From Patescibacteria group bacterium (GTDB taxonomy: Bacteria > Patescibacteriota > Patescibacteriia > JAQUQO01), in the NCBI GenBank assembly GCA_028716045.1, contig JAQUQO010000001.1, positions 320,942-384,941 on the forward strand: a DNA stretch of 64,000 nucleotides, written 5' to 3'. Made by a program: the position numbers and the translations under genes. Positions 3 through 58,863 of this stretch are shown in pieces (position 1 is the first letter of the stretch; every line of letters begins with the position of its first letter). Below the pieces are notes generated by a model. It worked only from the letters and a program-made list of their open reading frames with translations. It did no database searches and was not told where the DNA came from.

Positions 3-146
3 GAAGATTTAAAGAATAAAATACAAGAGTTGGTTAATCACCCGGAAATAGTGGGAGAACGGGGAGAAAAAGGGAAAGAATTTATAGAAAAAAATTACAA
101 TTGGGATAAAATTGCCGAGGAAACTTTGGAAATATACAAAGGTTGA
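3..146 (+). CDS. C-terminal fragment of a GT4 (family 1) glycosyltransferase; the 5' end lies outside the window
   Basis: Frame 3 reads ...EDLKNKIQELVNHPEIVGERGEKGKEFIEKNYNWDKIAEETLEIYKG*. This is the typical GT4 C-terminal tail. Stop TGA at 144-146. Confidence 0.5.
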   Translation, partial: EDLKNKIQELVNHPEIVGERGEKGKEFIEKNYNWDKIAEETLEIYKG

Positions 147-203
147 ACAAGGCGAGTATTTTTAGTCAATTTTATAAATACGAATTGTTTAATATCTTGG
201 CGC

Positions 204-232
204 TTGACAGGTTTTTAGAATTATGCTATAGT
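204..232 (+). promoter_or_regulatory. sigma70-type promoter, TTGACA-17-TATAGT with TGn
   Basis: TTGACA at 204-209, 17-nt spacer, tgcTATAGT at 224-232. It drives the structured RNA downstream. Confidence 0.55.
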
Positions 233-238
233 ATGGTC

Positions 239-572
239 AGAGAAAGGGTGCGGTAAAAACCGCCCCAAAATAGCATCTCCCCCCGTTGTGCGTTTAACGC
301 GCCGGCGGGAAAAAGGGAGTTTTGTTCTGCCAAAATATTGTATTGAGTTAATTTTAACTTGATACGTCGGGTTTTAGGAGGTATGTCTTTGGCCAAGCGT
401 ACCAGAGAGTTTAGGGGAACGGTTGTTCTCCCTCCCGATGAGTTAGTTCTGGCGACGGATAAAAAGCGCGCAAAAGCGTCACCGGAAAGTCCTCTAGGAA
501 ATTTTTCCTAAAAAACTCTAAAATTATTGCGCCGGGAACCCAGAGGGGGTCTCCGGCGCTTTTTTTTTCTTA
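239..572 (+). ncRNA. structured non-coding RNA of unknown identity, about 330 nt, running from promoter to intrinsic terminator
   Basis: GC content is above the local background. It begins with the hairpin GGGUGCGGUAAAAACCGCCCC and contains GGAAAGUCC at 484-492. It ends in a strong terminator GCGCCGG-N17-CCGGCGC followed by U9 at 529-568. The only long ORF is a GC-rich 47-aa reading frame whose SD lies 1 nt from the ATG. Confidence 0.5.
529..568 (+). terminator. Rho-independent terminator
   Basis: 7-bp GC stem GCGCCGG/CCGGCGC with a 17-nt loop, followed by TTTTTTTTT. Confidence 0.7.
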
Positions 573-594
573 TCAGATAGGGTAAAATATAGCC

Positions 595-2475
595 ATGATT
601 GCCGAAATTATACCGGCAATAAAATTGCCGAGAAATTTTACCTACTTTGACTATTTGGTTCCCGAGGAGCTGAAGAGTAGTCTGCGCGTGGGGCAGATAG
701 TTCAAATACCTTTCCGTGGCCAAAAAATTGAAGGGCTGGTTTATAATATAAAAAAAGGCAGTGAATCAAAATTTAAAAAATTGAAAGCCATAATAAAAAT
801 ACCTATCAACCCGCCGGTTTTTGATAGAGAGGATATTGAGCTAATAAAATGGCTGGCTAATTATTATTTCATTTCTTGGGGGCTGTCCGCCAAACAATTT
901 ATCCCCGATTTTCCCAAAAGAAAATCCCAGTCCCAAGAAATAATCACTTCTAATCTTTCAATTAATTTTGAGGTCAAGCCACGGCCAAGGGGATTGGGTT
1001 ATTTTCAATATAAAAATCAGGACGAAAAACACTCTTTTTATTTAGACACGGTTCGAAAAAATCAGGGGCAAAATAGGCAAACATTGTTTTTATCGCCAAC
1101 TATCAGTGGGGCGATAGAATTGAATAATTTTTTTATTCAGCATTTTAAAGGACAAACATCTCTGTTATTAAATAATTTATCAAAAGGTTCTTTTTATACC
1201 GAGTGGCTCAATATCTTAAATAACAAAAAAAGTATCATTATTGGAACTCGCAGCGCTATCTTTTCTCCCTTGAAAAATATTGGGGCGATTGTTTTGGACG
1301 AAGAATTCAGTGATGATTTTAAACAAGAAGAGCCAAACCCGCGTTACGACGCTCGCAGTTTGGCTATACAAATAAACAAACTTAAAAATATTTCGGTTAT
1401 TTTTTCCAGTCCCCTACCCCGGCTGGAAATGTACCCACAAATAAAATCCGGTAAGATAAAAATTTTAAGCAGTACGGAAATAAAATATGACAATTTAAAA
1501 ATCATAGATTTAAACGAAGAAATTCGAGCCGGTAATTATTCGTTACTAAGCGATTTCCTGGAGGAAAAAATTGCCGGTGTTTTAAAAAATAAAAAACAGA
1601 CACTACTATTTTTAAATCGCCGCGGTGGCGCCACGTACATTTATTGCGGTGATTGTTCCTATGTTTTTTCATGCGGAGAATGCCAATTACCCTTGGCAGA
1701 GTACGGAAAAATTCTACGTTGCCGGCATTGTAATAAAGAGTTTCCTTTTCCGCTTGCCTGCCCCGCCTGTTCCGGGACTAATCTAAAATTTTCCGGCAAA
1801 GGCACACAAAAAGTAGAATTTTTTATAAAAAATAAATTTCCCGACGCGATTTCTTTAAGATTGGATGCTGATGTTGATAAAAAGGATTTAGATCAAAAAA
1901 TACTCGCCAAGGCCGATATTATTATTGGCACAAACTTTATTTGGCAACGTTTAGATTGGAGTAAAATCGGGCTTGTCGGTGTGCTTAATTTTGATAATTT
2001 TATAAACCATCAAGATTTCAGGACCAGAGAAAAGCAAGGCCATTTTTTAGCCAATTTAAAAACGCATTTTGATGGGCCACTTGTTATCCAGACACACTCC
2101 CTGGATAATCCAGTTTTTCAATATTTAAAGAATGGAGATTGGCAGGAATTTTTTAACAAAGAGCTGGAAATTAGGAACTCTTTTTCTTATCCCCCATATT
2201 CGCATCTGATTAAACTTATTTATCAAGATAGTAATGATAAAAAAGCCGAAAGAGAGTCAGCGAAAATTTATAAACTATTAGCAAGTAAAATCAAAGGATT
2301 AGCTGGAGTAGAATTAATTCCCCCGATCCAGTATTATGGTTTAAAAATACGCGGAAAATATCGCTGGAATTTAGTGCTTAAAGTCCGCCAGGATTCTTGG
2401 AATAAAATTTATGAAATTTTGAAAGTCGTGCCGGCAAACTGGTTAATTGATATAGACCCGAGTAATCTTCTTTAG
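595..2475 (+). CDS. priA: primosomal protein N' (PriA) homolog with degenerate helicase motifs
   Basis: N-terminal 3'BD-like region; IIIGTRSAIFSPLKNIGAIVLDEEFSDDFKQEEPNPRYDARSLA aligns to the PriA motif II region; Cys-rich zinc-binding segment CGDCSYVFSCGECQ...CRHCN...CPACSG; C-terminal domain. No GxGKT Walker A motif is present. Confidence 0.85.
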   Translation: MIAEIIPAIKLPRNFTYFDYLVPEELKSSLRVGQIVQIPFRGQKIEGLVYNIKKGSESKFKKLKAIIKIPINPPVFDREDIELIKWLANYYFISWGLSAKQFIPDFPKRKSQSQEIITSNLSINFEVKPRPRGLGYFQYKNQDEKHSFYLDTVRKNQGQNRQTLFLSPTISGAIELNNFFIQHFKGQTSLLLNNLSKGSFYTEWLNILNNKKSIIIGTRSAIFSPLKNIGAIVLDEEFSDDFKQEEPNPRYDARSLAIQINKLKNISVIFSSPLPRLEMYPQIKSGKIKILSSTEIKYDNLKIIDLNEEIRAGNYSLLSDFLEEKIAGVLKNKKQTLLFLNRRGGATYIYCGDCSYVFSCGECQLPLAEYGKILRCRHCNKEFPFPLACPACSGTNLKFSGKGTQKVEFFIKNKFPDAISLRLDADVDKKDLDQKILAKADIIIGTNFIWQRLDWSKIGLVGVLNFDNFINHQDFRTREKQGHFLANLKTHFDGPLVIQTHSLDNPVFQYLKNGDWQEFFNKELEIRNSFSYPPYSHLIKLIYQDSNDKKAERESAKIYKLLASKIKGLAGVELIPPIQYYGLKIRGKYRWNLVLKVRQDSWNKIYEILKVVPANWLIDIDPSNLL

Positions 2476-48195: not shown

Positions 48196-51100
48196 TTAAT
48201 AAAATCCCGTATCTATATCATCCATAATATCCTTGCCTTTTTCTCCCGAATCTACTTTCGGTTCTTGCTGAGCATCTTTAATCTCTGCTGGAGCCGGGGG
48301 AATTTCTTTTTTTATTTCTGGACTCGCTGCCGGTCTTGATAGTGGAACTTCCGGGGCTGGCGGGGCTGAAATCCCCATTCCTTCTGTTGATTTCTCTAAG
48401 GGCATATCCAGGGTAATCGCGCCGGCTTTTTCTTTGGCTAAATCAATCGGTGAAGATTTATATGATTTGTAATCCTCTCTTTCGGAAGTAAGATAATAAA
48501 CGTTCGGGCCAACCAAGAACCCGTATCGGCCGGCGGAATCAGTAACTTGAGCCGCTAGTAATTTATTGAATTGAATATCAAAAATGCGAACCACGGCTTT
48601 GCCCAAAGGTTTTTTCGTCCCCTTATCATAAACAATACCCCAACCCTTTGGTTTTGAAGGATAAGCCAAGCGGCGGAACAAGAAATAAAGCATAAAATGA
48701 AGCGCCACCAAAATTCCCATCAGTAGTTTAGGCACAATGGCAAAGGTGACAATTGACAAGCCCAATCCGGAAAGCGAAATGCCATTTTGCACCCGACGAC
48801 CGACGGCCAAAGCTAAAATCTTTCTGTTCGGCTTGTCTTCTTTCACCGGGTCAAGCGGGATATTGGCGGTAATAACAGCTCCGCTTGCTTCTACTTTTAT
48901 GTTTTCCCCGTGGTATAAATCAAGGAACGCCATATCCTCTTTTTTCTCTCCCAACAATGACGTGGGATATTTAAATTCCACTTTTTTCACCTCTATCCGA
49001 TAAGTCCCCGCTTCTTTAATTATCAGATTATAACGCCCTTGTTTGTCGGTAATTTGCGTCTGAACTAAAGTTCCGTTTTGGACATTAATCAAGCGGACAA
49101 TAGCCAAATCAATCGGCTCCTTGGAAATAGAATTATACACCGTCCCCCAGCCCTTCCTCTTGCGACGCGATAATAATCTAAAAGGTTCGGTGAAAATAAA
49201 CTGTAAATAAGGAATGAGATACACAAAAGAGATAGCCGTGGAAGCATTAACCGCCACCACCGCCACTAAAGTCGGGGCGACGTAATTTTGAGCGGCTTTT
49301 TCCACCTGCGGGTCATCAGCCAGCTCTCCCACGGTATTAACTATAACTTCAACTGTTCCCACAAGGGAATTGAGGAAATCCGCAACCGGTGATTCCACTA
49401 TGTCCTCTTCGTTATTGTCATCAATACTCAAACACCCCGCGTCAGCCGGATAATCCGTCTGACCATCTCCATCATTATCCGCCCCGTCAAAACAAGCAGG
49501 GAGAGAAACGGTGAATTCTTCTACGTTGGAGATTATTTTGTATTCCTTGGCTATCTCATCATAAACTCTGACGTAAGATTTATGCGCTCCCGGAGGCAAA
49601 GAAATTTTTATATTTTCCGCCCATTCCTCGTTCTGCGGCGTAAATTCATACTTGTAAATCTCGCTCTCCACGACTAATTCATATGTTTTGCCAATTTCGG
49701 CATTATGCATAATAACGGTAATGCCAGCATCCATTAATTTGCTTTCCGCGGACACTTTGCCTTGCCGCACCTCACTAAGTTTAACTCCCTCCAAGCGAGC
49801 GGCTATTTCTTTGATATTTATTTCACCAATAGTCACTCTTATTATCGTATCTCTTATTTTCTCGCCGATTTCTTCTTCCTGCTCCTCTTTTATTTCTTCC
49901 GCTGTTTTCTCTGTTACTTTAAACTCAAACAAAGAAGAATAAACTTCTCCCACTTTCACTCTTAAAGTATGCGCCCCAAATAATAATTCATCCGTTAAAG
50001 TATAGCTGAAAAAACCTTCGCTGTTAGCTTTCGTGCTGTCCAGATATTCTCCGTCCAAATAAATATCCACTGCGCCGTTGCTGACATAAGCGTTACCCCT
50101 GATAGTCGGCGCTGTGTCAGTAATTTCGGAATTGTCCCCGGGATATGTGATAACCGGTGGTTTTTGTTCTGCTTTTTTATATAATCCAAAATACGCCGAA
50201 CCCTTGCCGCCGCGTTCCAAATCCACGGTTACCATTTCCGAAGTAGTCAGAGTGTATCCGGAAGGCAAAACCAGAGAATATTTCCCTTTTTCTATCTTTC
50301 CGATTTTAACAAAATGTTTTCCCGCTCTTCTGCCATCCACCGTAGAATGCCCCCCTGCCACGGAACTCACGGAATACACATTAACTTCTGTTTCCTGCGG
50401 ACCACTCAAAGCCCCGTCTCCATTCAAATCATAATAAACGAGCGTTCTGATTCCTTGCACACCCTTCTCGCCCTTGTCATATTGGCCATTATTGTTGCCG
50501 TCAAAAAAAGTAAAAATATCAATGGCGCCGGCGCTGACCGGATTTAAAAGGGTGTTGGAGGTAGCAGATTTATTTTCTCCGTTTTGCGTATATTCGGCTT
50601 TAGCCACATTAGAAATAGTATGGGGCACACTTTGCTTTACCTCATCAGGCGAAACTTTAAAGGGTAATGTCAGATAACCTGACTGACCGGCTTTTACTTC
50701 TCCCAAATTAAATATTATTTCGCAAGAGCTGGTCTCCTCTTCCCCTGCACATTTTAGAAAATCTTCCAACCGGCCAACCGACTCGCTATTTTTCTTCAAA
50801 TAACCGTCGTCAAAAATAACTGAATCTATTTTATCTTTTATAACTACGTTTTTCAGATCGTCTTTCGTTTGATTGATATAATCAATCTGATAAACAATAC
50901 TGTCTTCCGGCTGCACTGCCACGCCATTGCCGGCGTAATTTTCCACTTTTATTGAAGCATCATTTAATCCGGCCATGGTAGCCATCATCGCCACTTTCAC
51001 TATTCCCAAAACAACTGCCATTGCTAAAGTGGAATAGGCCTTTCTCTCAAATCTTATTCTCACCATGGAACGCGCGGCTCGATTCCACAAAACCAGATGA

Positions 51101-54100
51101 TAGCTTAAAATAACCAAAGAAATCAAAATAAAAAAAGACATCACCGCTGAAAAATTTCTAAGATACTTTAGATTCTCCAGCGGCTGGATTTTTGTTCCGA
51201 TATTTAAAGAGGAGCTTAAAACCGCGGAGCCCTTCACTTCTCCCTGCCCCGGTTCCTTAATGACCGCTGTTTTAATAAGCGTGAAAGACGGGGGCAAGGT
51301 TTTGGCCGTGAGCGCTTCTGACCAGGGCGTGTCAACTCCTCCGCCATTTCGTCCCCTGGCGCGAATAGTATAAGAAGTGTCGGGTTTTAAATTGCCAAAG
51401 GTAAAACTATTTTGTCCGGCGGCGAATTCCGAAGCCAGCGGTGTTCCGTCTTCCGGAATTCTATCTCCCTCGTAGATTTCAAAAGTCACTCCCGCTTGCT
51501 CCCAATCCGTCCCGACCGGGAAAGAATAATTATCCACGCTCGCCCATAAAGAAGTAGTGAGCGCCGCCTGCAAGGTCGGCTTAGACGGCGGTTCAGCTAA
51601 AGTCCAAACAGCGGGACAAACCGCGCAATCTCCCGAATAAGCATTGGTTATTTTATTTTTTACGCAAACCTTGCGGCCATCAAGTTTAGTATTATATTTT
51701 AATCCTTCCTTCGAACTCTCCTCGTAAAAGCCAAAATATTCCTGCGTAAAATACGCATAAACAGTGGACTCCTTCGCCGGAATCCAGGACTTTAAATACT
51801 GGTCGGTATTGTAAACAGCCGTCAAATATCCGGACCAAGGAGTGGTGTACCCGGAAGAAACCACATCCACCATTTTGTCAGAGGTCACAAAAGGAACAAA
51901 TTCCAGATTATCCCTGTCGGATTCGTTCAAAAAATCAATGGGAAAATCCACCACCCAAATAATAGCATGCCCTTCTCTGCCCCCATAAGAACTGGCGTCA
52001 AATCCTCCGAAGCCGCGGCAATTGGTCGCGTTAACCATAAACCCGGCCGCGATATCTTCGGCATAATTTAAAGTGACATTATAAATTATGGGCGTATCCG
52101 TATCCGGCGTTAATACGGCCTTCCATCTCAAATCGCTTCCGCTGGTGGCAAAAACGTATTCCACCCCATTCGTCACCGCCACCCAAGTGGTCCCGCCATC
52201 ATTGCTTAAATAATAGGCAATAGTGGAAGCGCCCGGCAGATAATGTTCGGCCGTTAAGGTGGCTCTTAAGATATTTCTCCCAGGATTGGCCATGGCAACG
52301 GATTGAGCGATATAAGTGCCGGCGGTTTGAGTTAATTGCGGAGTGAAAATAAAGGAATCGCCCGAAGAATAAGCGACCAGCAGTTCTTTCATGGAGTCGC
52401 GATTAATGTCATGGGCGAAAACCGCGGAGGAAGGTGCGGCGCTTAATAATTCCACGGTAAAATCGCCCCGACCGTCGTTCCGGTAAATATATGTTCCTGC
52501 GGCGCCACCAACTAAATATAAATCAACATCTCCGTCATTATCCAAATCATCGCCCCGGAAAATTCCCGTCGTGCCCAATGACTGTTTAGTAAATGAGCCT
52601 TGGCCATTATTCCAATAGATGGCGGAGTTTATATCGGAATTAGAAACGACGACGTCTTTCCAGCTATCGCCGTTTAAATCGGCGGAAACTATATTATCTG
52701 TGCTGCCTTCTCCGAATTGGCTTTCCCGTATAAATGTTCCGCTGCCATTATTCCTGTATAAAAAATTCTGCTGGCTTACTCTATCACCCACCAAAATATC
52801 CACGTCTCCGTCATTATCTATGTCATCCGTGTATCCCTGAAGCGTGTTCTCCCACGCCAAACCCAAATCTTCCTGAATAAAAGTTGAACCATCGCCGTTG
52901 TTTCTAAAAATAAAATTCTGGCCGTTTTCAAAAATAATAATATCCTGGTCGCCATCCCCTTCCACGTCCGCCGGCCAAAGCTGTCTTTCATTACCAATAC
53001 TTACTATTTGGGTTATAGTGCTGAAATTGCCCGCGCCGTCATTGAAATAAACGCAATCCCAGCCGTTATCAGCCCCCACTAAAATATCCAGATACCCGTC
53101 GCCGTTAAAATCAGCCGCGCCATCAATATCATTATTGGCGCAAGAAACATTGGTAAAGGGAGCGGTGGCCGTAAATCCCCCACCACCATCGCCCAGATAG
53201 ATTTTACTGCTGGTGGCGGCATCGGCTCCGGACAGCACCGCCAAATCTTCATAACCATCATAATTCACATCCCCCAAAGGCATTATTTTTGAAGTCTGCG
53301 CGGGGAAATTGGCTCCGCCGTAAAGTTGCGCCCAACCGCCATCGGCGTCATTATTATGAAGATTATTTTCATAAATATAATTTTGGTCATCGGCATCGGC
53401 GCAAGTTCCGCCGATACAAGAAAAATAATGAATGATATCCTCATCGCCGTCTTTATCTATATCCGCAGCCGCCAAGTTATCCGCCTTATCAACATTAGCT
53501 GACCCACTGGCGAAATATCCGGTTTCTTCCGTAAAAGTCCCGCTGCCCTTATTGCGCAACAGGCCGTTGATGCCCACGCCGCTCGCTATGACCGCCAAAT
53601 CCATATCACCGTCCAAATCGGCGTCAACGTCAATCATTTTGGCGTAATTAAAACTAAAAGCGGCATTGGCCGTAAAAGTTCCTTGCCCGTTATTTTGATA
53701 TAAAAATAAACTCGCGCCATTTGAAGCAATGATGTCCTCATCTCCGTCATTATCAAAATCATTAACCACCAAACTATCGTTGCCGCTACCGGCCGCATAA
53801 GCCAAAGTGCTCGCCAAAGTAAAGGCGCCCGTCCCATCATTAGTATAAATTTTCGCGCCAACGCCGTTATCGCAAACAATGACGTCCATGTCTCCGTCAA
53901 CGTCAACGTCAACGGCTTTAATGGTCCGAGTGTCGCCAGCGTTGAAAGTGTCACTGGAAGTGAACGTGCCATCACCGTCATTGAGCCAGAGTTTATCCTG
54001 CGCGGCGGTTCCTTCCAAGATATCAACATCGCCGTCCTTATTAACATCGGCCGCGTCCAAAGATTGGGTATTGCTGGCACCAAATCCCGAGTATTCGCTG

Positions 54101-57100
54101 GCCGCGCCAAAAGTTCCGCTGCCATTATTCAAATAATAATAATTTTGACCATTGTTGCCTTGAATAATATCCTTATCACCATCCTCGTCTAAATCCACGG
54201 CTAAAAGCGTATTGGTATTTCTGCTCGTGCCGCCGTCGGGAAAAGGAGTTGATTCTGTAAAAGTTCCGCTGCCATTGTTCTTGTATAAATACATTGGGTT
54301 GCCATAATTGCCCGCTACAATATCCTGATCTCCATCAGTATCAATATCAACGGACAGAATAAAGGAGGTGTCATTGGCCGCGGCCGCCGGACTTAAAGCG
54401 GCGCTGCCGACAGCGAAAGTATTGGTCGCTGGCGCCCGAATCACCTCTCCGACAGCGCTCCATTCGGTCGTAGTGGTGGCGCTATCGCGCCAAACTGTGG
54501 TGTCAAAAGTATCAGTAATGCTTCCCCTGATGGCGGTAAAAGAAAAAGTGGCGCTATAAGCTGTGCCGCCGTTTTCATCAACGCCCGCCACCCTCCAATA
54601 ATAAGTCGTCTTGGGGGTTAAAGTATATTTCGCGGGTAAGGTGAAAGAAGCCGTATCTCCGGAATTATAAAAATTGACCTGCGACCATCCCAGAGAATCA
54701 TCTTTGACATACCAGATATTGTCTTCTTTTTGGTAAAAAGTTAAAACATCTTTGTTAAACGATGAATCCGCGGCGATTTCCAAAATATAATGCAGAGTAT
54801 CACTATCCGTATCCGTAGTGGAAAATTCAAAAGTGGGGTTTAAAGAAACTCCGGTCGCTCCGTCAGCCGGCGCGGTTAAAGAGGGTGTCCCGGGGTTGGT
54901 GTTGCCGTAAGTTATGGAAATATCAGAAATTGACGCCGAATAAGCGACATCCGTGGTGGCTAATATCGCCTTCCATCTTAAATCTGAACCAGTGGTTGTA
55001 AAAGTATGCGCTACTCCGGAAGTGGCCGCCTCCCAAGTTCTGCCGCCATTGTTGGATAAATAATAAGTGACAGAAGTGTTGGTCGGAGTAGTGGCCGTGG
55101 CTGTAAGAGTAGCCACATTTATATTTTCCACCGTGCTATCAACTATCTTGGATAGTATTGTGCTGTTATTATATTTATAAGAAAAGCTCTGCTCTAATTC
55201 GCCATAACCGCTCAAAAATATTTTTTTATCAACGTCATAATTAGGAGAGACAACTAAGGACTTATAATTAACGTCAGCCAGAGAGCTTCTGCTTTTCCAA
55301 ATTAAATCAATTGAAGTATCGTCGGTAAAAATAGTGTCCGAACTGTTGTGGGAAACTCCGCGCAAATCCAGATAACCATTATTATCCATATCGATAAGAC
55401 AGATGCTTGCGTCCGGACCGTAATCACTGGCTGGCTCGCCCGGGTCATAGGTGTAATCCGCGGTAGTGTTAAAAGTAGGGGCTCCATAATAGGCATAAAA
55501 CTTTCCGCGATGAAAAGTTTCTCCCGCTGACGCCCGATAATCCGGAGCCGCCACGACGACATCATCATAACCATCTTTATCTACATCGGCTGCTTCTACT
55601 AATTCGCCAAAATCGCTGCCGCTATCGTCAGCAGAATCATTGATAGTGCTATTGGCAGAAACGGTTGTCAGAGTGGATGCCAGTGAAGCGCTGCCGTTAA
55701 AAACATAAACACGCCCATCGCCGTCGCCAGCAGCACGAGAAGCTCCCACCACAATATCGTTATACCCATCGCCATTCACATCACCGGCAAGGGATAAATC
55801 TATGCCAAAAACATCACCAGCATCACCGGTTAAGGTGACGTCAGCCGTTGTATCAAAAGATTTTCCGCCGTAATAAATATAAACCCGCCCGGTATTAGCG
55901 CTGTAACTGGGCGCGCTAATCGCCAAATCATCAAACCCGTCGCCATTAACATCACCGGCACTCACCGCCGCTCCAAAAAGGTCGCCAGCCGCCGCGCCGG
56001 ACAAAGCATAATCATACACGTCATTAAAAAGTTTTCCCCCAAAATAAATCACCACTCCGCCCTGATTAGCTCCCTCTCCATTATTGTAGGTATATATACC
56101 TACAATAATATCTTTAAAACCATCGCCATTGATATCGGCAATAGTCACGCCATTATCACTGATTGTTTCAGCCGTAACATCCACATCGTCTAACGTATAA
56201 TCAACCACTGTATTAAACGTACTGCCGCCCAATAATACTTCAAGATTGGCGCCGTTTTTATCTAGCACATCCGCATAACCATCACCGTTAATATCGCCTC
56301 CGGCATAGATATTATTAAGCGTGTAATCTGCCGTGTTATCAATTCCGGCGGTGGCATTTAAAAATATACTCGTGGCATTAGCCAAATCCTCCAAACCGTC
56401 ACCGTTAATATCGCCCAAATTAACCCCTCTCTTTTGCTCCGCGTAAGAAGAGCCAAAAGCGCTGGGCATTAAATTCCAATTCTTAGCCGTGCCGCTATTA
56501 GAACTCACATATATTTGCGGAGTATCATTAAAACCTGCCCAAATACGTTTGTCACTGCCGCTATAATTATAATCTGGGGAAATGGCTATAGTCCGCAGGA
56601 TCTCTGTCATTCCTGTCGGCGTTATATCTGAAGCTCCCCCTTCAAAACGGTCCACTGTCATATATAAACTGACAGTGGTGTTGCTCCAAACCCAAGCCAC
56701 GCATTTTTCCGGATTGGCAACGCAATTAGCGGTTCCATCAAATTGCGGAGCTAATAACAAATGGTCCCAGCTCCCTCCGGGAATCACCGCCCAGCTAGTA
56801 CCACCATCTATTGTTACTAGACGGGCGCCGGTAGTGGTGGCAAGAACCTCGCTATCAGTTGCGAAGTTTGGGGATATTTTTATATCTGTCACTTCATTTA
56901 CCACATTTGTTCCCGCGTCAAAAGTGGCTCCGGAATCGATGGATTCGTAAATTTTACCGCCGGCCGTGCCTAAAAATAAATTTGCGGAATTTGCCGGGGA
57001 AATAGCAATGACAGTAATGCGATCATACGTTGTGCCAACGGGAGCACAGGAAATAGTGGAGGCCGTCTGGGCCCAAGTAGCACCGCCATCAGTGCTTTTA

Positions 57101-58863
57101 TAAAATTTACAGGCAGTGGCGTTGATTCCCCATTCACCGGCGTAAATAGTACTATCAGTAATATAATTAGGAGAAAGTTGATAAGCGGAAATATAAGAAG
57201 TGGCGGCGGTGATTCTCGTCCAAGTTATTCCGCCATCGGTTGATTTATAAATAAAACCATTGCAGATATTTTCTCCGGCCACATCACCCTCTTGGGAGCA
57301 GGCAAATATCGTGTTGTCACTGGCAAAATTCGGAGATACTTGAACATCTATTAAATCCCCGAGCGATAGACCAGTTAGATAAGAAACTGTCCATACTCCT
57401 CCGCTATTAACGGCTTTTTGCAACCCCTGCCCAAGGGTGCTCATTATTATAGTGCCATCAGTAGTATAATTAGGTGACATGTCTCCATCGGTCACTTTCC
57501 TCATTGTTCCATCGGTTGTAAGGTCAGCTATTTGCGAACATTCCACGCCCAAAGCCAGACCCCCCCCATCATCAACACACTGCCAAGAACCCCAGTTTTG
57601 TATTTCCCAATGTTGGTTGAAATAATAAATCTCATCTTCGGCACTGTAAGCGGCGCTATTATACGCCGGAGAAATTTCTAAACCGTCCTGCGCCATGGCT
57701 GCTATATTTTTAGACCAAGCGCAAGCCGAAACATTTGGGTCATTACAAGTAGTGGTCTTAAACGTTTGGCCCGTATAAGTCGGCGCGCTTCCGCCGGAAA
57801 CGGCTAAAATCGTATTGTCAGTATTATAAGCCGGAGAAAATTCTATATCATTAATATATCCTTCACCCCCAGGAGTCGGGAGGGTTACGCCAGTATTTAT
57901 CTCCGTCAAAGTGCAGGTGGCGGCCGCGGCTGTACAATCGCCGGAACCAAAAAATCCGCTGCCTTCAGTTCCTACAATAATCGTGCCGTCAGTAGCGTAT
58001 GCCGGAGAAACTTTTAAAACAGTAATATCCCCCGCAGCGGTGGAAGCTACTGCCGCGTTACCATTATCCCAGGTGACACCCTTGTCATGGCTTTTATAAA
58101 TAGCTTGGCCGGTGGAACCGAAAAGAGTGCAGCCAGTTGGCGTCGTGACGCAATCGGCCGTAGTATCACTATAAGAAGTGGCAGGCATTAAAGCTAAAGC
58201 AACGGGGGCTGTAAAACTAGCCCAAGTTGAACCACCGTCAGTACTTTTATAATTGCCATAAGTAAGGGTCGTGTAATCCAAGACCAGAACAAAAATAGTT
58301 GAATCATTATCATAATCAGGCGACAGAGCATACAAACTAACAACTTTCCCGCTGACTATTTTAGTGGCGTTATCAATAGACCAACCACCGCCCGCTAAAG
58401 TATCGGTCCAAGTCGCACCCTTGTCCTCACTTTTATATAAACCGCCGTTAAATCTGACAAACATCGTGCAGTTTGCCGGGTTAGCTCCACAATTCGCTTC
58501 ATTTTCATTATAAGAAGGGCTTAAGGCGGGCGTATCAGGTGAGCTGGCCGTATCAAACCCGCTCCCTGAAATATCCCATAAACCATCACCTGCTAAAGAC
58601 GTTACCGTGCCGGCCGAAGAATTCCACGAGGCCGTAGAATGCGCCAAGTCCAAATTAGCGCCGGTAGAAAGGTTGTCGATGAAAGTGTACCCCGTAGCTT
58701 TGGCGTTTCTGTCCGTCCACAAGTTTATGCCGTAAATCAAAGACAATACCAAAGAAATAATAGCTAAAACCGAAACAAACCCAAAAAGTTTTCTGAGGCC
58801 GAAAAGGTCGCGGCAAAAATGTAAATACTGGCCAAAAAGTTTATTGGCTTTCCCTCGTTTCAT
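48196..58863 (-). CDS. giant multidomain surface protein (3555 aa): signal anchor, BNR/Asp-box beta-propeller, FG-GAP/VCBS repeat arrays, Fn3-like repeats, SdrD-B/Cna-B-like and CarbopepD_reg-like domains, several TM segments
   Basis: Repeated YKS(T/E)DGG(A/S)TW Asp-box motifs. More than 25 D(I/V/L)(N/D)xDGxxD(I/L)(I/V)VG FG-GAP-type repeats. A duplicated segment YYLSN(N/D)GG(R/T)TW...GSDLRWKA(I/V)L. FFDGNNNGQYDKGEKGVQG. A Cys-rich CFDGADNDGDGQTDYPADAGC. Three internal hydrophobic helices. Confidence 0.85.
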   Translation of the reverse strand: MKRGKANKLFGQYLHFCRDLFGLRKLFGFVSVLAIISLVLSLIYGINLWTDRNAKATGYTFIDNLSTGANLDLAHSTASWNSSAGTVTSLAGDGLWDISGSGFDTASSPDTPALSPSYNENEANCGANPANCTMFVRFNGGLYKSEDKGATWTDTLAGGGWSIDNATKIVSGKVVSLYALSPDYDNDSTIFVLVLDYTTLTYGNYKSTDGGSTWASFTAPVALALMPATSYSDTTADCVTTPTGCTLFGSTGQAIYKSHDKGVTWDNGNAAVASTAAGDITVLKVSPAYATDGTIIVGTEGSGFFGSGDCTAAAATCTLTEINTGVTLPTPGGEGYINDIEFSPAYNTDNTILAVSGGSAPTYTGQTFKTTTCNDPNVSACAWSKNIAAMAQDGLEISPAYNSAAYSAEDEIYYFNQHWEIQNWGSWQCVDDGGGLALGVECSQIADLTTDGTMRKVTDGDMSPNYTTDGTIIMSTLGQGLQKAVNSGGVWTVSYLTGLSLGDLIDVQVSPNFASDNTIFACSQEGDVAGENICNGFIYKSTDGGITWTRITAATSYISAYQLSPNYITDSTIYAGEWGINATACKFYKSTDGGATWAQTASTISCAPVGTTYDRITVIAISPANSANLFLGTAGGKIYESIDSGATFDAGTNVVNEVTDIKISPNFATDSEVLATTTGARLVTIDGGTSWAVIPGGSWDHLLLAPQFDGTANCVANPEKCVAWVWSNTTVSLYMTVDRFEGGASDITPTGMTEILRTIAISPDYNYSGSDKRIWAGFNDTPQIYVSSNSGTAKNWNLMPSAFGSSYAEQKRGVNLGDINGDGLEDLANATSIFLNATAGIDNTADYTLNNIYAGGDINGDGYADVLDKNGANLEVLLGGSTFNTVVDYTLDDVDVTAETISDNGVTIADINGDGFKDIIVGIYTYNNGEGANQGGVVIYFGGKLFNDVYDYALSGAAAGDLFGAAVSAGDVNGDGFDDLAISAPSYSANTGRVYIYYGGKSFDTTADVTLTGDAGDVFGIDLSLAGDVNGDGYNDIVVGASRAAGDGDGRVYVFNGSASLASTLTTVSANSTINDSADDSGSDFGELVEAADVDKDGYDDVVVAAPDYRASAGETFHRGKFYAYYGAPTFNTTADYTYDPGEPASDYGPDASICLIDMDNNGYLDLRGVSHNSSDTIFTDDTSIDLIWKSRSSLADVNYKSLVVSPNYDVDKKIFLSGYGELEQSFSYKYNNSTILSKIVDSTVENINVATLTATATTPTNTSVTYYLSNNGGRTWEAATSGVAHTFTTTGSDLRWKAILATTDVAYSASISDISITYGNTNPGTPSLTAPADGATGVSLNPTFEFSTTDTDSDTLHYILEIAADSSFNKDVLTFYQKEDNIWYVKDDSLGWSQVNFYNSGDTASFTLPAKYTLTPKTTYYWRVAGVDENGGTAYSATFSFTAIRGSITDTFDTTVWRDSATTTTEWSAVGEVIRAPATNTFAVGSAALSPAAAANDTSFILSVDIDTDGDQDIVAGNYGNPMYLYKNNGSGTFTESTPFPDGGTSRNTNTLLAVDLDEDGDKDIIQGNNGQNYYYLNNGSGTFGAASEYSGFGASNTQSLDAADVNKDGDVDILEGTAAQDKLWLNDGDGTFTSSDTFNAGDTRTIKAVDVDVDGDMDVIVCDNGVGAKIYTNDGTGAFTLASTLAYAAGSGNDSLVVNDFDNDGDEDIIASNGASLFLYQNNGQGTFTANAAFSFNYAKMIDVDADLDGDMDLAVIASGVGINGLLRNKGSGTFTEETGYFASGSANVDKADNLAAADIDKDGDEDIIHYFSCIGGTCADADDQNYIYENNLHNNDADGGWAQLYGGANFPAQTSKIMPLGDVNYDGYEDLAVLSGADAATSSKIYLGDGGGGFTATAPFTNVSCANNDIDGAADFNGDGYLDILVGADNGWDCVYFNDGAGNFSTITQIVSIGNERQLWPADVEGDGDQDIIIFENGQNFIFRNNGDGSTFIQEDLGLAWENTLQGYTDDIDNDGDVDILVGDRVSQQNFLYRNNGSGTFIRESQFGEGSTDNIVSADLNGDSWKDVVVSNSDINSAIYWNNGQGSFTKQSLGTTGIFRGDDLDNDGDVDLYLVGGAAGTYIYRNDGRGDFTVELLSAAPSSAVFAHDINRDSMKELLVAYSSGDSFIFTPQLTQTAGTYIAQSVAMANPGRNILRATLTAEHYLPGASTIAYYLSNDGGTTWVAVTNGVEYVFATSGSDLRWKAVLTPDTDTPIIYNVTLNYAEDIAAGFMVNATNCRGFGGFDASSYGGREGHAIIWVVDFPIDFLNESDRDNLEFVPFVTSDKMVDVVSSGYTTPWSGYLTAVYNTDQYLKSWIPAKESTVYAYFTQEYFGFYEESSKEGLKYNTKLDGRKVCVKNKITNAYSGDCAVCPAVWTLAEPPSKPTLQAALTTSLWASVDNYSFPVGTDWEQAGVTFEIYEGDRIPEDGTPLASEFAAGQNSFTFGNLKPDTSYTIRARGRNGGGVDTPWSEALTAKTLPPSFTLIKTAVIKEPGQGEVKGSAVLSSSLNIGTKIQPLENLKYLRNFSAVMSFFILISLVILSYHLVLWNRAARSMVRIRFERKAYSTLAMAVVLGIVKVAMMATMAGLNDASIKVENYAGNGVAVQPEDSIVYQIDYINQTKDDLKNVVIKDKIDSVIFDDGYLKKNSESVGRLEDFLKCAGEEETSSCEIIFNLGEVKAGQSGYLTLPFKVSPDEVKQSVPHTISNVAKAEYTQNGENKSATSNTLLNPVSAGAIDIFTFFDGNNNGQYDKGEKGVQGIRTLVYYDLNGDGALSGPQETEVNVYSVSSVAGGHSTVDGRRAGKHFVKIGKIEKGKYSLVLPSGYTLTTSEMVTVDLERGGKGSAYFGLYKKAEQKPPVITYPGDNSEITDTAPTIRGNAYVSNGAVDIYLDGEYLDSTKANSEGFFSYTLTDELLFGAHTLRVKVGEVYSSLFEFKVTEKTAEEIKEEQEEEIGEKIRDTIIRVTIGEINIKEIAARLEGVKLSEVRQGKVSAESKLMDAGITVIMHNAEIGKTYELVVESEIYKYEFTPQNEEWAENIKISLPPGAHKSYVRVYDEIAKEYKIISNVEEFTVSLPACFDGADNDGDGQTDYPADAGCLSIDDNNEEDIVESPVADFLNSLVGTVEVIVNTVGELADDPQVEKAAQNYVAPTLVAVVAVNASTAISFVYLIPYLQFIFTEPFRLLSRRKRKGWGTVYNSISKEPIDLAIVRLINVQNGTLVQTQITDKQGRYNLIIKEAGTYRIEVKKVEFKYPTSLLGEKKEDMAFLDLYHGENIKVEASGAVITANIPLDPVKEDKPNRKILALAVGRRVQNGISLSGLGLSIVTFAIVPKLLMGILVALHFMLYFLFRRLAYPSKPKGWGIVYDKGTKKPLGKAVVRIFDIQFNKLLAAQVTDSAGRYGFLVGPNVYYLTSEREDYKSYKSSPIDLAKEKAGAITLDMPLEKSTEGMGISAPPAPEVPLSRPAASPEIKKEIPPAPAEIKDAQQEPKVDSGEKGKDIMDDIDTGFY

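Follow-up and report, generated by a model that had tools for sequence, protein, structure and literature searches.

The question raised by this locus is what is encoded by the GC-rich segment just 5' of priA, near the start of a 64,000-nucleotide (nt) stretch of Patescibacteria DNA, the whole of which is called the window here. The initial annotation had read the segment as a structured RNA bounded by a promoter and a terminator and had offered three identities for it, namely RNase P RNA in a reduced or rearranged form, an RNA like 6S, or a structured RNA of a new kind. The last of these has stood, while the first two found no Rfam match at E <= 10. Positions 239-568 are probably, by a modest measure, an independent gene for a stable, highly structured non-coding RNA (ncRNA) of an uncatalogued family, which would function as a folded molecule that binds a partner. 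The evidence comes from a homolog with the same fold in a second lineage.

This homolog, the only one found, is in locus L010 (P0003 contig, Logan ERR15087765), where it lies directly upstream of a priA gene whose product is 55% identical to the PriA of the window. The L010 unit has its own TTGACA-17-TATATT promoter, its own terminator and the same order of helices as the window RNA, and it folds at z = -7. The sizes of the two RNAs are 330-375 nt, the window RNA having about 330 nt, and the blocks GTCGGGTTTT(A)GGAGG, AGAGTTT..AGGGGAA and AAAAACTCTAAAA are identical between them. The conserved core is formed by positions 340-523 of the window, about 185 nt, which correspond to 227-419 of L010.

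The fold of the two RNAs was compared by covariance models and by alignments of different kinds. Model R2, which was built from the 3' domain of the window RNA alone and with no information from L010, finds L010 282-419 with 44.7 bits and an E-value of 5e-10. With model R1 the two RNAs score 98 and 78 bits, and 708 kb of other loci contain no credible match. None of the 49 modelled pairs is lost in either RNA, and 8-19 of them are changed on both sides. Between hairpins H3 and Px, a structure-blind MAFFT alignment has standard pairs at 15 of 15 positions in both RNAs, with three double and two single changes, and no double changes are left when the partners are slid by 1-3 columns as a control. 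In the 3' domain, an alignment fitted to the model, which shifts the register of hairpins hp1 and hp2, has 34 of 34 pairs in standard form in both RNAs and 16 double changes, against 0-3 in the slid controls. A hand count of hp2 and hairpin hp3 in a sequence-guided alignment gives about 5-8 double changes and zero disrupted pairs, and one C.A mismatch in hp2 of the window is a G-C pair in L010. RNAalifold reproduces the structure of the 3' domain with a covariation term of -8.5 kcal/mol.

Nucleotide identity is 55-62% in the core and 64% in the priA coding sequence, and no core pair is lost. The core is no more similar than priA, yet its pairing is fully kept, and therefore selection appears to act on the fold. 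As far as two sequences allow it to be judged, the fold is kept by compensatory changes, i.e. it is under selection. The initial annotation had proposed to look for covariation with homologs and had set against it, as the outcome that would speak against an RNA, conservation at the amino-acid level; in the comparison with L010 the base pairs covary and no amino-acid conservation is seen, which is the outcome expected for an RNA.

The elements of the fold in the window are located as follows.

239-339, plus strand: variable 5' domain, with hairpin H1 (246-266), the long hairpin H2 (272-326) and an A-rich linker; it holds GAAAGGGUGCGGUAA.
340-365, plus strand: hairpin H3, the first core element, with 9 of 9 pairs kept through two double and two single changes (structure-blind MAFFT alignment).
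365-381, plus strand: invariant single-stranded tract CGUCGGGUUUU(A)GGAGG, identical in L010 but for one deleted A.
380-403, plus strand: hairpin Px, with the loop UUUGGCC, the palindrome UUGGCCAA and UUG389; its pairs are kept, with a double change from U-A to C-G.
406-519, plus strand: 3' domain, with helix A (406-412 with 513-519), hp1 (413-433), CCCGAU (434-439), hp2 (440-494) and hp3 (495-510).
510-523, plus strand: invariant A-rich block AAAAACUCUAAAA, in which the 3' strand of helix A lies; L010 has an identical copy of the 13-mer at 511-523.

Segment-wise folding of the two RNAs gives the same order of elements, which is two 5' hairpins, the A-rich linker, H3, the invariant strand, Px, the junction closed by helix A, the A-rich block and the terminator. 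The 5' domain is the variable part: its identity to L010 is 44%, L010 also has two hairpins there, of other size and sequence, and model R3, built from the 5' domain of the window, does not match that of L010. In the core, the GGAGG of the invariant tract resembles a Shine-Dalgarno sequence. Helix A is made by AGAGUUU with AAACUCU and encloses the junction of hp1, the joiner CCYGAUGrGUU, hp2 and hp3. In both RNAs hp2 has a 4x4 internal loop with tandem G.A pairs beside the stem (UUAG/AGUC in the window, UUGA/GACG in L010), and tandem G.A pairs are a common motif for protein binding or tertiary contacts.

Two features of the core could join distant or separate parts. The segment GUCGGG (366-371), which follows H3 directly, is complementary to CCCGAU (434-439) of the junction in the window, as is 249-255 to 336-342 in L010, where the counterparts are GUCGGGU and ACCUGAU and one G-C pair becomes G.U; a GUCGGG:CCYGAU pseudoknot is probably formed. 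The loop of Px, with the consensus UUUGG(G)CC in both RNAs, carries an 8-nt palindrome, which reads UUGGCCAA in the window and UGGGCCCA in L010, and a symmetric change from U/A to G/C keeps its self-complementarity. This palindrome would allow a dimer to be formed by kissing loops.

The unit has the boundaries of a gene on both sides.

204-232, plus strand: promoter TTGACA-17-TATAGT with TG, from a consensus scan; it has a counterpart in L010, and similar ones occur in loci L005 and L011.
529-568, plus strand: intrinsic terminator, a stem-loop at 529-559 followed by U9 at 560-568, from folding; the L010 terminator is in the same place and has an unrelated sequence.

The promoter is of the extended -10 type, with TTGACA at 204-209, a spacer of 17 nt, TATAGT at 227-232 and TG at 224-225. 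It agrees with the consensus at 11 of 12 positions and is one of only two such sites within the first 3 kb, and transcription would start at about A239. The stem-loop of the terminator extends from G529 to C559 and has 12 pairs (8+4), one A.C mismatch, a 5-nt loop and about -23 kcal/mol by RNAfold. A simple terminator scan passed over this hairpin because of its internal mismatch, and RNAfold recovers it. The GC content is 44-46% over 226-600; upstream it is 28-32%, and most of the next 3 kb has 30-38%. The initial annotation had thus been right about the consensus promoter, the strong terminator with its nine U and the higher GC content of the element. The 334-nt transcript has a minimum free energy of -126.4 kcal/mol, while dinucleotide shuffles have -99.5 +/- 5.4 (z = -5.0; none of 100 shuffles equals it). 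Both DNA strands of the locus fold well. The ATG of priA is at 595, 26 nt past the terminator. Neither a search for repeats and paralogs nor the model search found further copies of the RNA in the window.

No known RNA family accounts for this gene. Rfam 15, at gathering thresholds over the whole window (1-64000), gave zero matches, and ARAGORN found no tRNA and no transfer-messenger RNA (tmRNA), standard or permuted, in it. The initial annotation had suggested Rfam models of RNase P, tmRNA, 6S and signal recognition particle (SRP) RNA as a check; with permissive filters none of the four was found at E <= 10 in window 100-700 or L010 1-520. The matches below threshold are driven by the terminators, belong to unrelated models of small RNAs (sRNAs) or leaders, and are not the same in the two RNAs. 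OLE, ROOL, GOLLD, raiA and the remaining Rfam 15 models gave no covariance-model match, and no riboswitch or T-box model of Rfam matches either RNA. A blastn search of the RNA against phages gave no match, and nothing relevant was found in the literature on structured RNAs or RNase P RNA of the candidate phyla radiation (CPR).

The likeness to RNase P RNA had been proposed from two strings, the opening GAAAGGGTGCGGTAAAAACCGCCCC and the internal GGAAAGTCC, which are indeed present at 242-266 and 484-492. They do not behave as parts of RNase P, as both GAAAGGGUGCGGUAA and GGAAAGUCC are unconserved in the homolog. The string GGAAAGUCC (484-492) is composed of G484-A487, which belong to the 3' strand of hp2, A488-C491, which are half of the 4x4 internal loop, and C492; L010 has AGAAUGACGCC instead. 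The string GAAAGGGUGCGGUAA sits at the extreme 5' end, in the 5' domain that cannot be aligned between the two RNAs. A CR-V-like strand (similar to ACAGAA..CGGCUUA) that could pair with GGAAAGUCC is absent from both RNAs as read from their sequences. We take GAAAGGGUGCGGUAA to resemble the specificity domain of Escherichia coli M1 RNA, and a 15-nt string of the window RNA presumably matches M1 RNA. Two short RNase P-like strings can arise by chance in an unrelated RNA.

RNase P RNA was rejected, for it has no model match, no P4 3' strand, no P1 helix and unpaired ends. tmRNA was rejected for want of a tRNA-like domain, T-arm, CCA end or tag frame, and here the initial annotation, which had seen neither a tag frame nor a CCA end, agrees with the ARAGORN and Rfam results. 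6S RNA has no Rfam match here, and the conserved fold is made of hairpins and a branched junction and is not a rod with a central bubble. No SRP model matches. Likenesses seen by eye to a hammerhead core (CUGAUGA ... GAAA, GUC), a box C/D K-turn, domain V of group II introns, a T-box and tmRNA P2 were dropped, as their invariant positions are not all present in both RNAs and no Rfam model matches. The window RNA and the L010 RNA, which are all the members known, are best read as the founding pair of a new family.

The core also contains a possible reading frame.

389-511, plus strand: possible short open reading frame (ORF) of 40 amino acids (aa) with a UUG start, which overlaps the conserved core and probably encodes no conserved protein.

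The initial annotation had described an ORF of 47 aa whose Shine-Dalgarno sequence abuts the ATG. The position of the Shine-Dalgarno sequence was correct, since AGGAGG 376-381 abuts ATG383; the length was not, as the frame has 42 aa from ATG383 and 50 aa from TTG359. The properly spaced start, UUG at 389, 6 nt after GGAGG, had been overlooked. After about ten codons a size difference of 20 nt in hp1 breaks the frame, so the ORFs have 40 aa in the window and 23 aa in L010. The L010 ORF stops within the conserved CCUGAUG block, and the conserved blocks further on do not share its frame. Where codons 2-6 differ, the substitutions are those that compensate one another in hairpin Px; the codons that are identical (GAGUUU, AGGGGA) form the strand of helix A whose partner is equally invariant, and no synonymous-site pattern is present. 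Between the window RNA and L010, tblastx gave no significant similarity (best E 0.07, in other frames), and neither ORF matches Pfam or NCBIfam. When 1.84 billion representative proteins were searched exhaustively with HMMER, the one match, P0122, was due to chance: this repeat-rich protein of 885 aa owes its score to three weak repeat matches added together. No gene is called at the RNA locus in the deposited assembly (contig JAQTRY010000001.1, GCA_028711565.1). By these comparisons of sequence, a conserved protein is excluded.

The slot occupied by the RNA varies among related genomes. A protein search with PriA gave four members of the clade and many distant proteins; three relatives are at 55-57% identity, two at 42-43% and the others at <=39%. 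In L005, L006 and L011 (contigs of P0002 and P0004), the slot holds a Lys-rich ORF of 57-58 aa and no terminator, and a promoter placed like that of the RNA precedes it. This ORF (MVKKKKKKKNRSLVALSAIINRPSAGAFRNKKKDKKLRRQKDKNHCSKNNYGGFIFG) is found at L005 545-718, L006 187-360 and L011 88-264, between the glycosyltransferase gene and priA, and is very basic and well conserved, with a good Shine-Dalgarno sequence; the PriA proteins there are 56-57% identical to that of the window. The Lys-rich protein has no Pfam, NCBIfam or PDB match, and a tblastn search with it gave nothing. By eye it recalls, as our own assumption supported by no test, the ribosome-rescue factor ArfA.

In L007 and L008 just 71 nt, with no RNA, separate the glycosyltransferase gene from priA. 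In L009 (P0006 lineage) a GC-rich piece of about 110 nt (2012-2132) stands in the slot, which is dissimilar to the RNA, has no Rfam match and is no more stably folded than its shuffled versions (z = -0.4 and +0.1). In the more distant L084-L087, priA overlaps the AMMECR1 gene, and the gene order in L084, L086 and L087 is Memo-like, AMMECR1, the overlapping priA, NYN on the opposite strand, def and fmt. The clade of the window has a GT4 glycosyltransferase gene and the variable slot in place of AMMECR1. A remnant of AMMECR1 was considered for the RNA and rejected, as it has no similarity to that gene.

Wider searches did not enlarge the family. A scan of GTDB genomes based on PriA gave two loci only, distant and irrelevant, and a search with a profile of the PriA N-terminus gave one fragment, whose contig has adapter sequence and no RNA; this ENA contig, k141_684749 (L083 1-30), starts with an Illumina adapter (…AGACGTGTGCTCTTCCGATCT) and is an assembly artefact. 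A scan of JGI metagenomes with the pattern GTCGGGTTTTN{0,1}GGAGGN{12,36}AGAGTTT gave three chance matches, all in coding DNA, and a scan of IMG/VR viruses with a 15-mer gave 68 loci, none of them confirmed by model R1.

The gene that follows the RNA seems to be expressed from its own signal.

583-597, plus strand: -10-like box TAAAAT of priA, 6 nt before the ATG at 595, from the comparison of orthologous loci; it is not part of the RNA.

A block TTTTnTTTT..TAAAAATArrGTAAAATA is found upstream of priA in six orthologous loci (window, L010, L005, L011, L007 and L009), whatever precedes it. In five of the six, TAAAAT or TAGAAT precedes the ATG by exactly 6 nt and a Shine-Dalgarno sequence is lacking (the L010 box is at 479-494); L009 is the exception, with the candidate box TATGAT 2 nt before the ATG. 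L007 has the block without the RNA and without the upstream promoter, and its priA follows the terminator of another gene by 71 nt. As the box is kept even in L007, priA would have its own promoter and the RNA would be a separate transcription unit. The comparison suggests that in the clade of the window the priA mRNA is leaderless or near-leaderless from this promoter. In a crude survey many ORF starts of the window lack a Shine-Dalgarno sequence, while some genes do use GGAGG.

Several other ORFs of the window have a TATAAT-like box 6-11 nt before their start, and a second near-consensus promoter (TTGACT-17-TATAAT, 2478-2506) lies directly 5' of def; priA, def and fmt may each have their own promoter. 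The PriA proteins of the clade are short (626-643 aa; 595-2475 in the window; P0001-P0006) and in precomputed Pfam results match only the 3'-DNA-binding and C-terminal domains, with the DEAD/helicase and Zn-ribbon domains unmatched, while the more distant PriA proteins of 720-830 aa match all of these. The helicase core of the clade may be highly divergent. Elsewhere in the window, a single ORF of about 3555 aa occupies the minus strand at about 48196-58863; such giant proteins are a typical trait of CPR genomes.

Several points weigh against an independent gene for an ncRNA. Only two sequences are known, too few for covariation statistics of the R-scape type and a base that limits the weight of the finding, and the larger covariation count (16) comes from the alignment that was fitted to the model. 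Among the neighbouring genes (Memo-like, GT4, priA, def, fmt), none stands out as encoding a partner protein. A promoter, a structured RNA, a terminator and a same-strand gene 26 nt further on are the classic layout of a cis-regulatory leader, and the core of both RNAs retains a good ribosome-binding site (GGAGG, 6 nt, UUG), which is unexpected for a purely non-coding molecule, with the UUG389 frame surviving two 3-nt indels across the first ten or so codons. The layout, which is present in both genomes, would be explained by a cis-acting leader or attenuator of a priA-def-fmt operon, in which 204-232 is the promoter of the operon, the RNA senses a signal or the terminator leaks, and 529-568 sets the readthrough. 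Helix A ends 9-10 nt before the terminator, as the P1 helix of a riboswitch does, priA lacks a Shine-Dalgarno sequence, and in L005 and L011, where a promoter is followed by a small ORF and priA without a terminator, the promoter may feed priA. We nevertheless consider such a leader unlikely. A simple duplex scan of the 5' strand of the terminator against the upstream RNA in the two sequences found no alternative pairing that they share; the best alternative partners differ between them and reach -13 to -15 kcal/mol, whereas the terminator itself has -21 to -22. Since the terminators share no sequence and these partners are weak and different, an independent RNA gene is ranked above an attenuator of priA. 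The TAAAAT block of priA persists in L007, close relatives do without the RNA, in more distant ones priA and the gene before it overlap, and riboswitch and T-box models do not match. The conserved ribosome-binding site could in turn mean that the RNA is a messenger or has a dual function, in that GGAGG and UUG start a very short peptide, and either the peptide or its translation, perhaps with stalling at Pro-Pro-Asp or Pro-Pro-Pro, is the output. This is rather improbable in our estimate, even though the UUG is exposed in a hairpin loop, the frame kept through the indels gives (R/Q)EF(L)RG, both ORFs then reach proline codons (LPPD, IPPP), and the organism uses GGAGG for some genes. The two peptides differ in length and have no significant similarity, the changes in codons 2-6 restore Px and are not conservative for a protein, and the database homologs come down to the repeat-driven match. 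The L010 stop codon inside a conserved block and the missing gene call argue in the same direction, and the proline codons are a by-product of C-rich helix strands.

A divergent or rearranged RNase P RNA, 6S RNA, tmRNA or SRP RNA is hardly credible. The length of 330-375 nt suits RNase P RNA or tmRNA, GGAAAGUCC resembles the P4 5' strand, and the window has no canonical copy of any of these RNAs; however, the failure of all models at E <= 10 in both RNAs, the RNase P-like strings unconserved in L010, the missing P4 3' strand and tRNA-like domain, the unpaired ends, the branched junction in place of a rod and the sister lineages that lack the RNA at this locus all oppose it. The locus could finally be a non-functional remnant, such as a decayed gene or the scar of a mobile element, or hairpin-rich DNA such as a recognition site of PriA, which would fit a slot between GT4 and priA that is empty or holds the RNA, a gene for a small protein or a GC-rich piece of 110 nt, the good folding of both strands and an extremely narrow known distribution. 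This is very improbable, because compensatory changes are seen across lineages whose PriA proteins are just 55% identical, the strand-specific promoter and terminator are both retained, and G.U pairs, which work only in RNA of the plus strand, are used in H3, Px, hp2 and hp3; similarity to AMMECR1, repeats in the window and phage matches were all absent. The genomes of Patescibacteria (CPR) are tiny and contain hardly any non-coding DNA, and with a promoter so near the consensus and with the compensatory changes, a unit of 330 nt is therefore unlikely to be idle.

On the preferred reading, an independent ncRNA gene, the RNA would be transcribed from the extended -10 promoter, starting near A239 and stopping at the U9 terminator, and priA would be transcribed separately from its own -10 box. 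The functional part would be the core 340-523, which is composed of H3, the invariant purine-rich strand, Px and the helix A junction with its three hairpins. Stacked on H3, the GUCGGG:CCYGAU pseudoknot would hold the two halves together in a compact fold. This folded RNA would bind a protein or the small ribosomal subunit as its partner, with contacts likely at the U4(A)GGAGG tract, which is exposed, at the G.A loop and at the loop of Px. The RNA would act neither as a messenger nor as a switch of priA. A further-reaching version, which we regard as improbable, sees in it a new class of compact pseudoknotted RNA specific to one lineage of Patescibacteria, an RNA-only or RNA-protein machine that, for example, binds the ribosome or its 30S subunit, or forms a dimer by the Px loop, and whose function can equally be served by the Lys-rich protein of 57 aa found in the same promoter slot of the sister lineages, which would be a replacement of a protein by an RNA. 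If the RNA stands alone, the few medium-sized bacterial RNAs without a known role would gain a new family, and from a lineage in which RNA biology has hardly been explored; as a leader, it would be the first regulatory RNA to be reported for the replication-restart helicase operon, priA-def-fmt.

Among the known systems, RNase P RNA shares with the window RNA its overall length and a string, GGAAAGUCC, that resembles the P4 5' strand, but in the window RNA the order of elements is wrong, the fold is another, P1 and P4 pairings are missing, and the strings do not recur in L010. 6S RNA has in common with it the look of an abundant sRNA of the housekeeping type whose gene has a strong promoter and a terminator; 6S RNA is a rod of about 180 nt with a central bubble and paired 5' and 3' halves, whereas the window RNA is composed of local hairpins and a branched junction. 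Riboswitches and attenuators of the terminator type have in common with it the promoter, a domain closed by a terminal helix, the terminator and a close gene on the same strand; unlike them, it has no conserved antiterminator, priA keeps its own -10 box where the RNA is missing, and sister lineages dispense with the RNA. SgrS/SgrT, RNAIII/hld and SR1/SR1P are also structured sRNAs that end in a terminator and have an internal ribosome-binding site and a short ORF, but their peptides are conserved, while here the peptides differ and the ORF runs through the conserved helices instead of being placed next to them.

The large orphan RNAs OLE, ROOL, GOLLD and the raiA motif RNA differ from the window RNA in that it is smaller (330-375 nt, with a core of about 185 nt), occurs in two metagenomic lineages only, carries an element like a ribosome-binding site and matches no model of theirs. 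They resemble it in being stand-alone, GC-richer, multi-helix RNAs with conserved junction sequences and a pseudoknot, which is a probable one in the window RNA, and in having been spotted as GC-rich intergenic regions of AT-rich genomes. Self-association is reported for several of these orphan RNAs, and the self-complementary loop of the window RNA hints at the same property.

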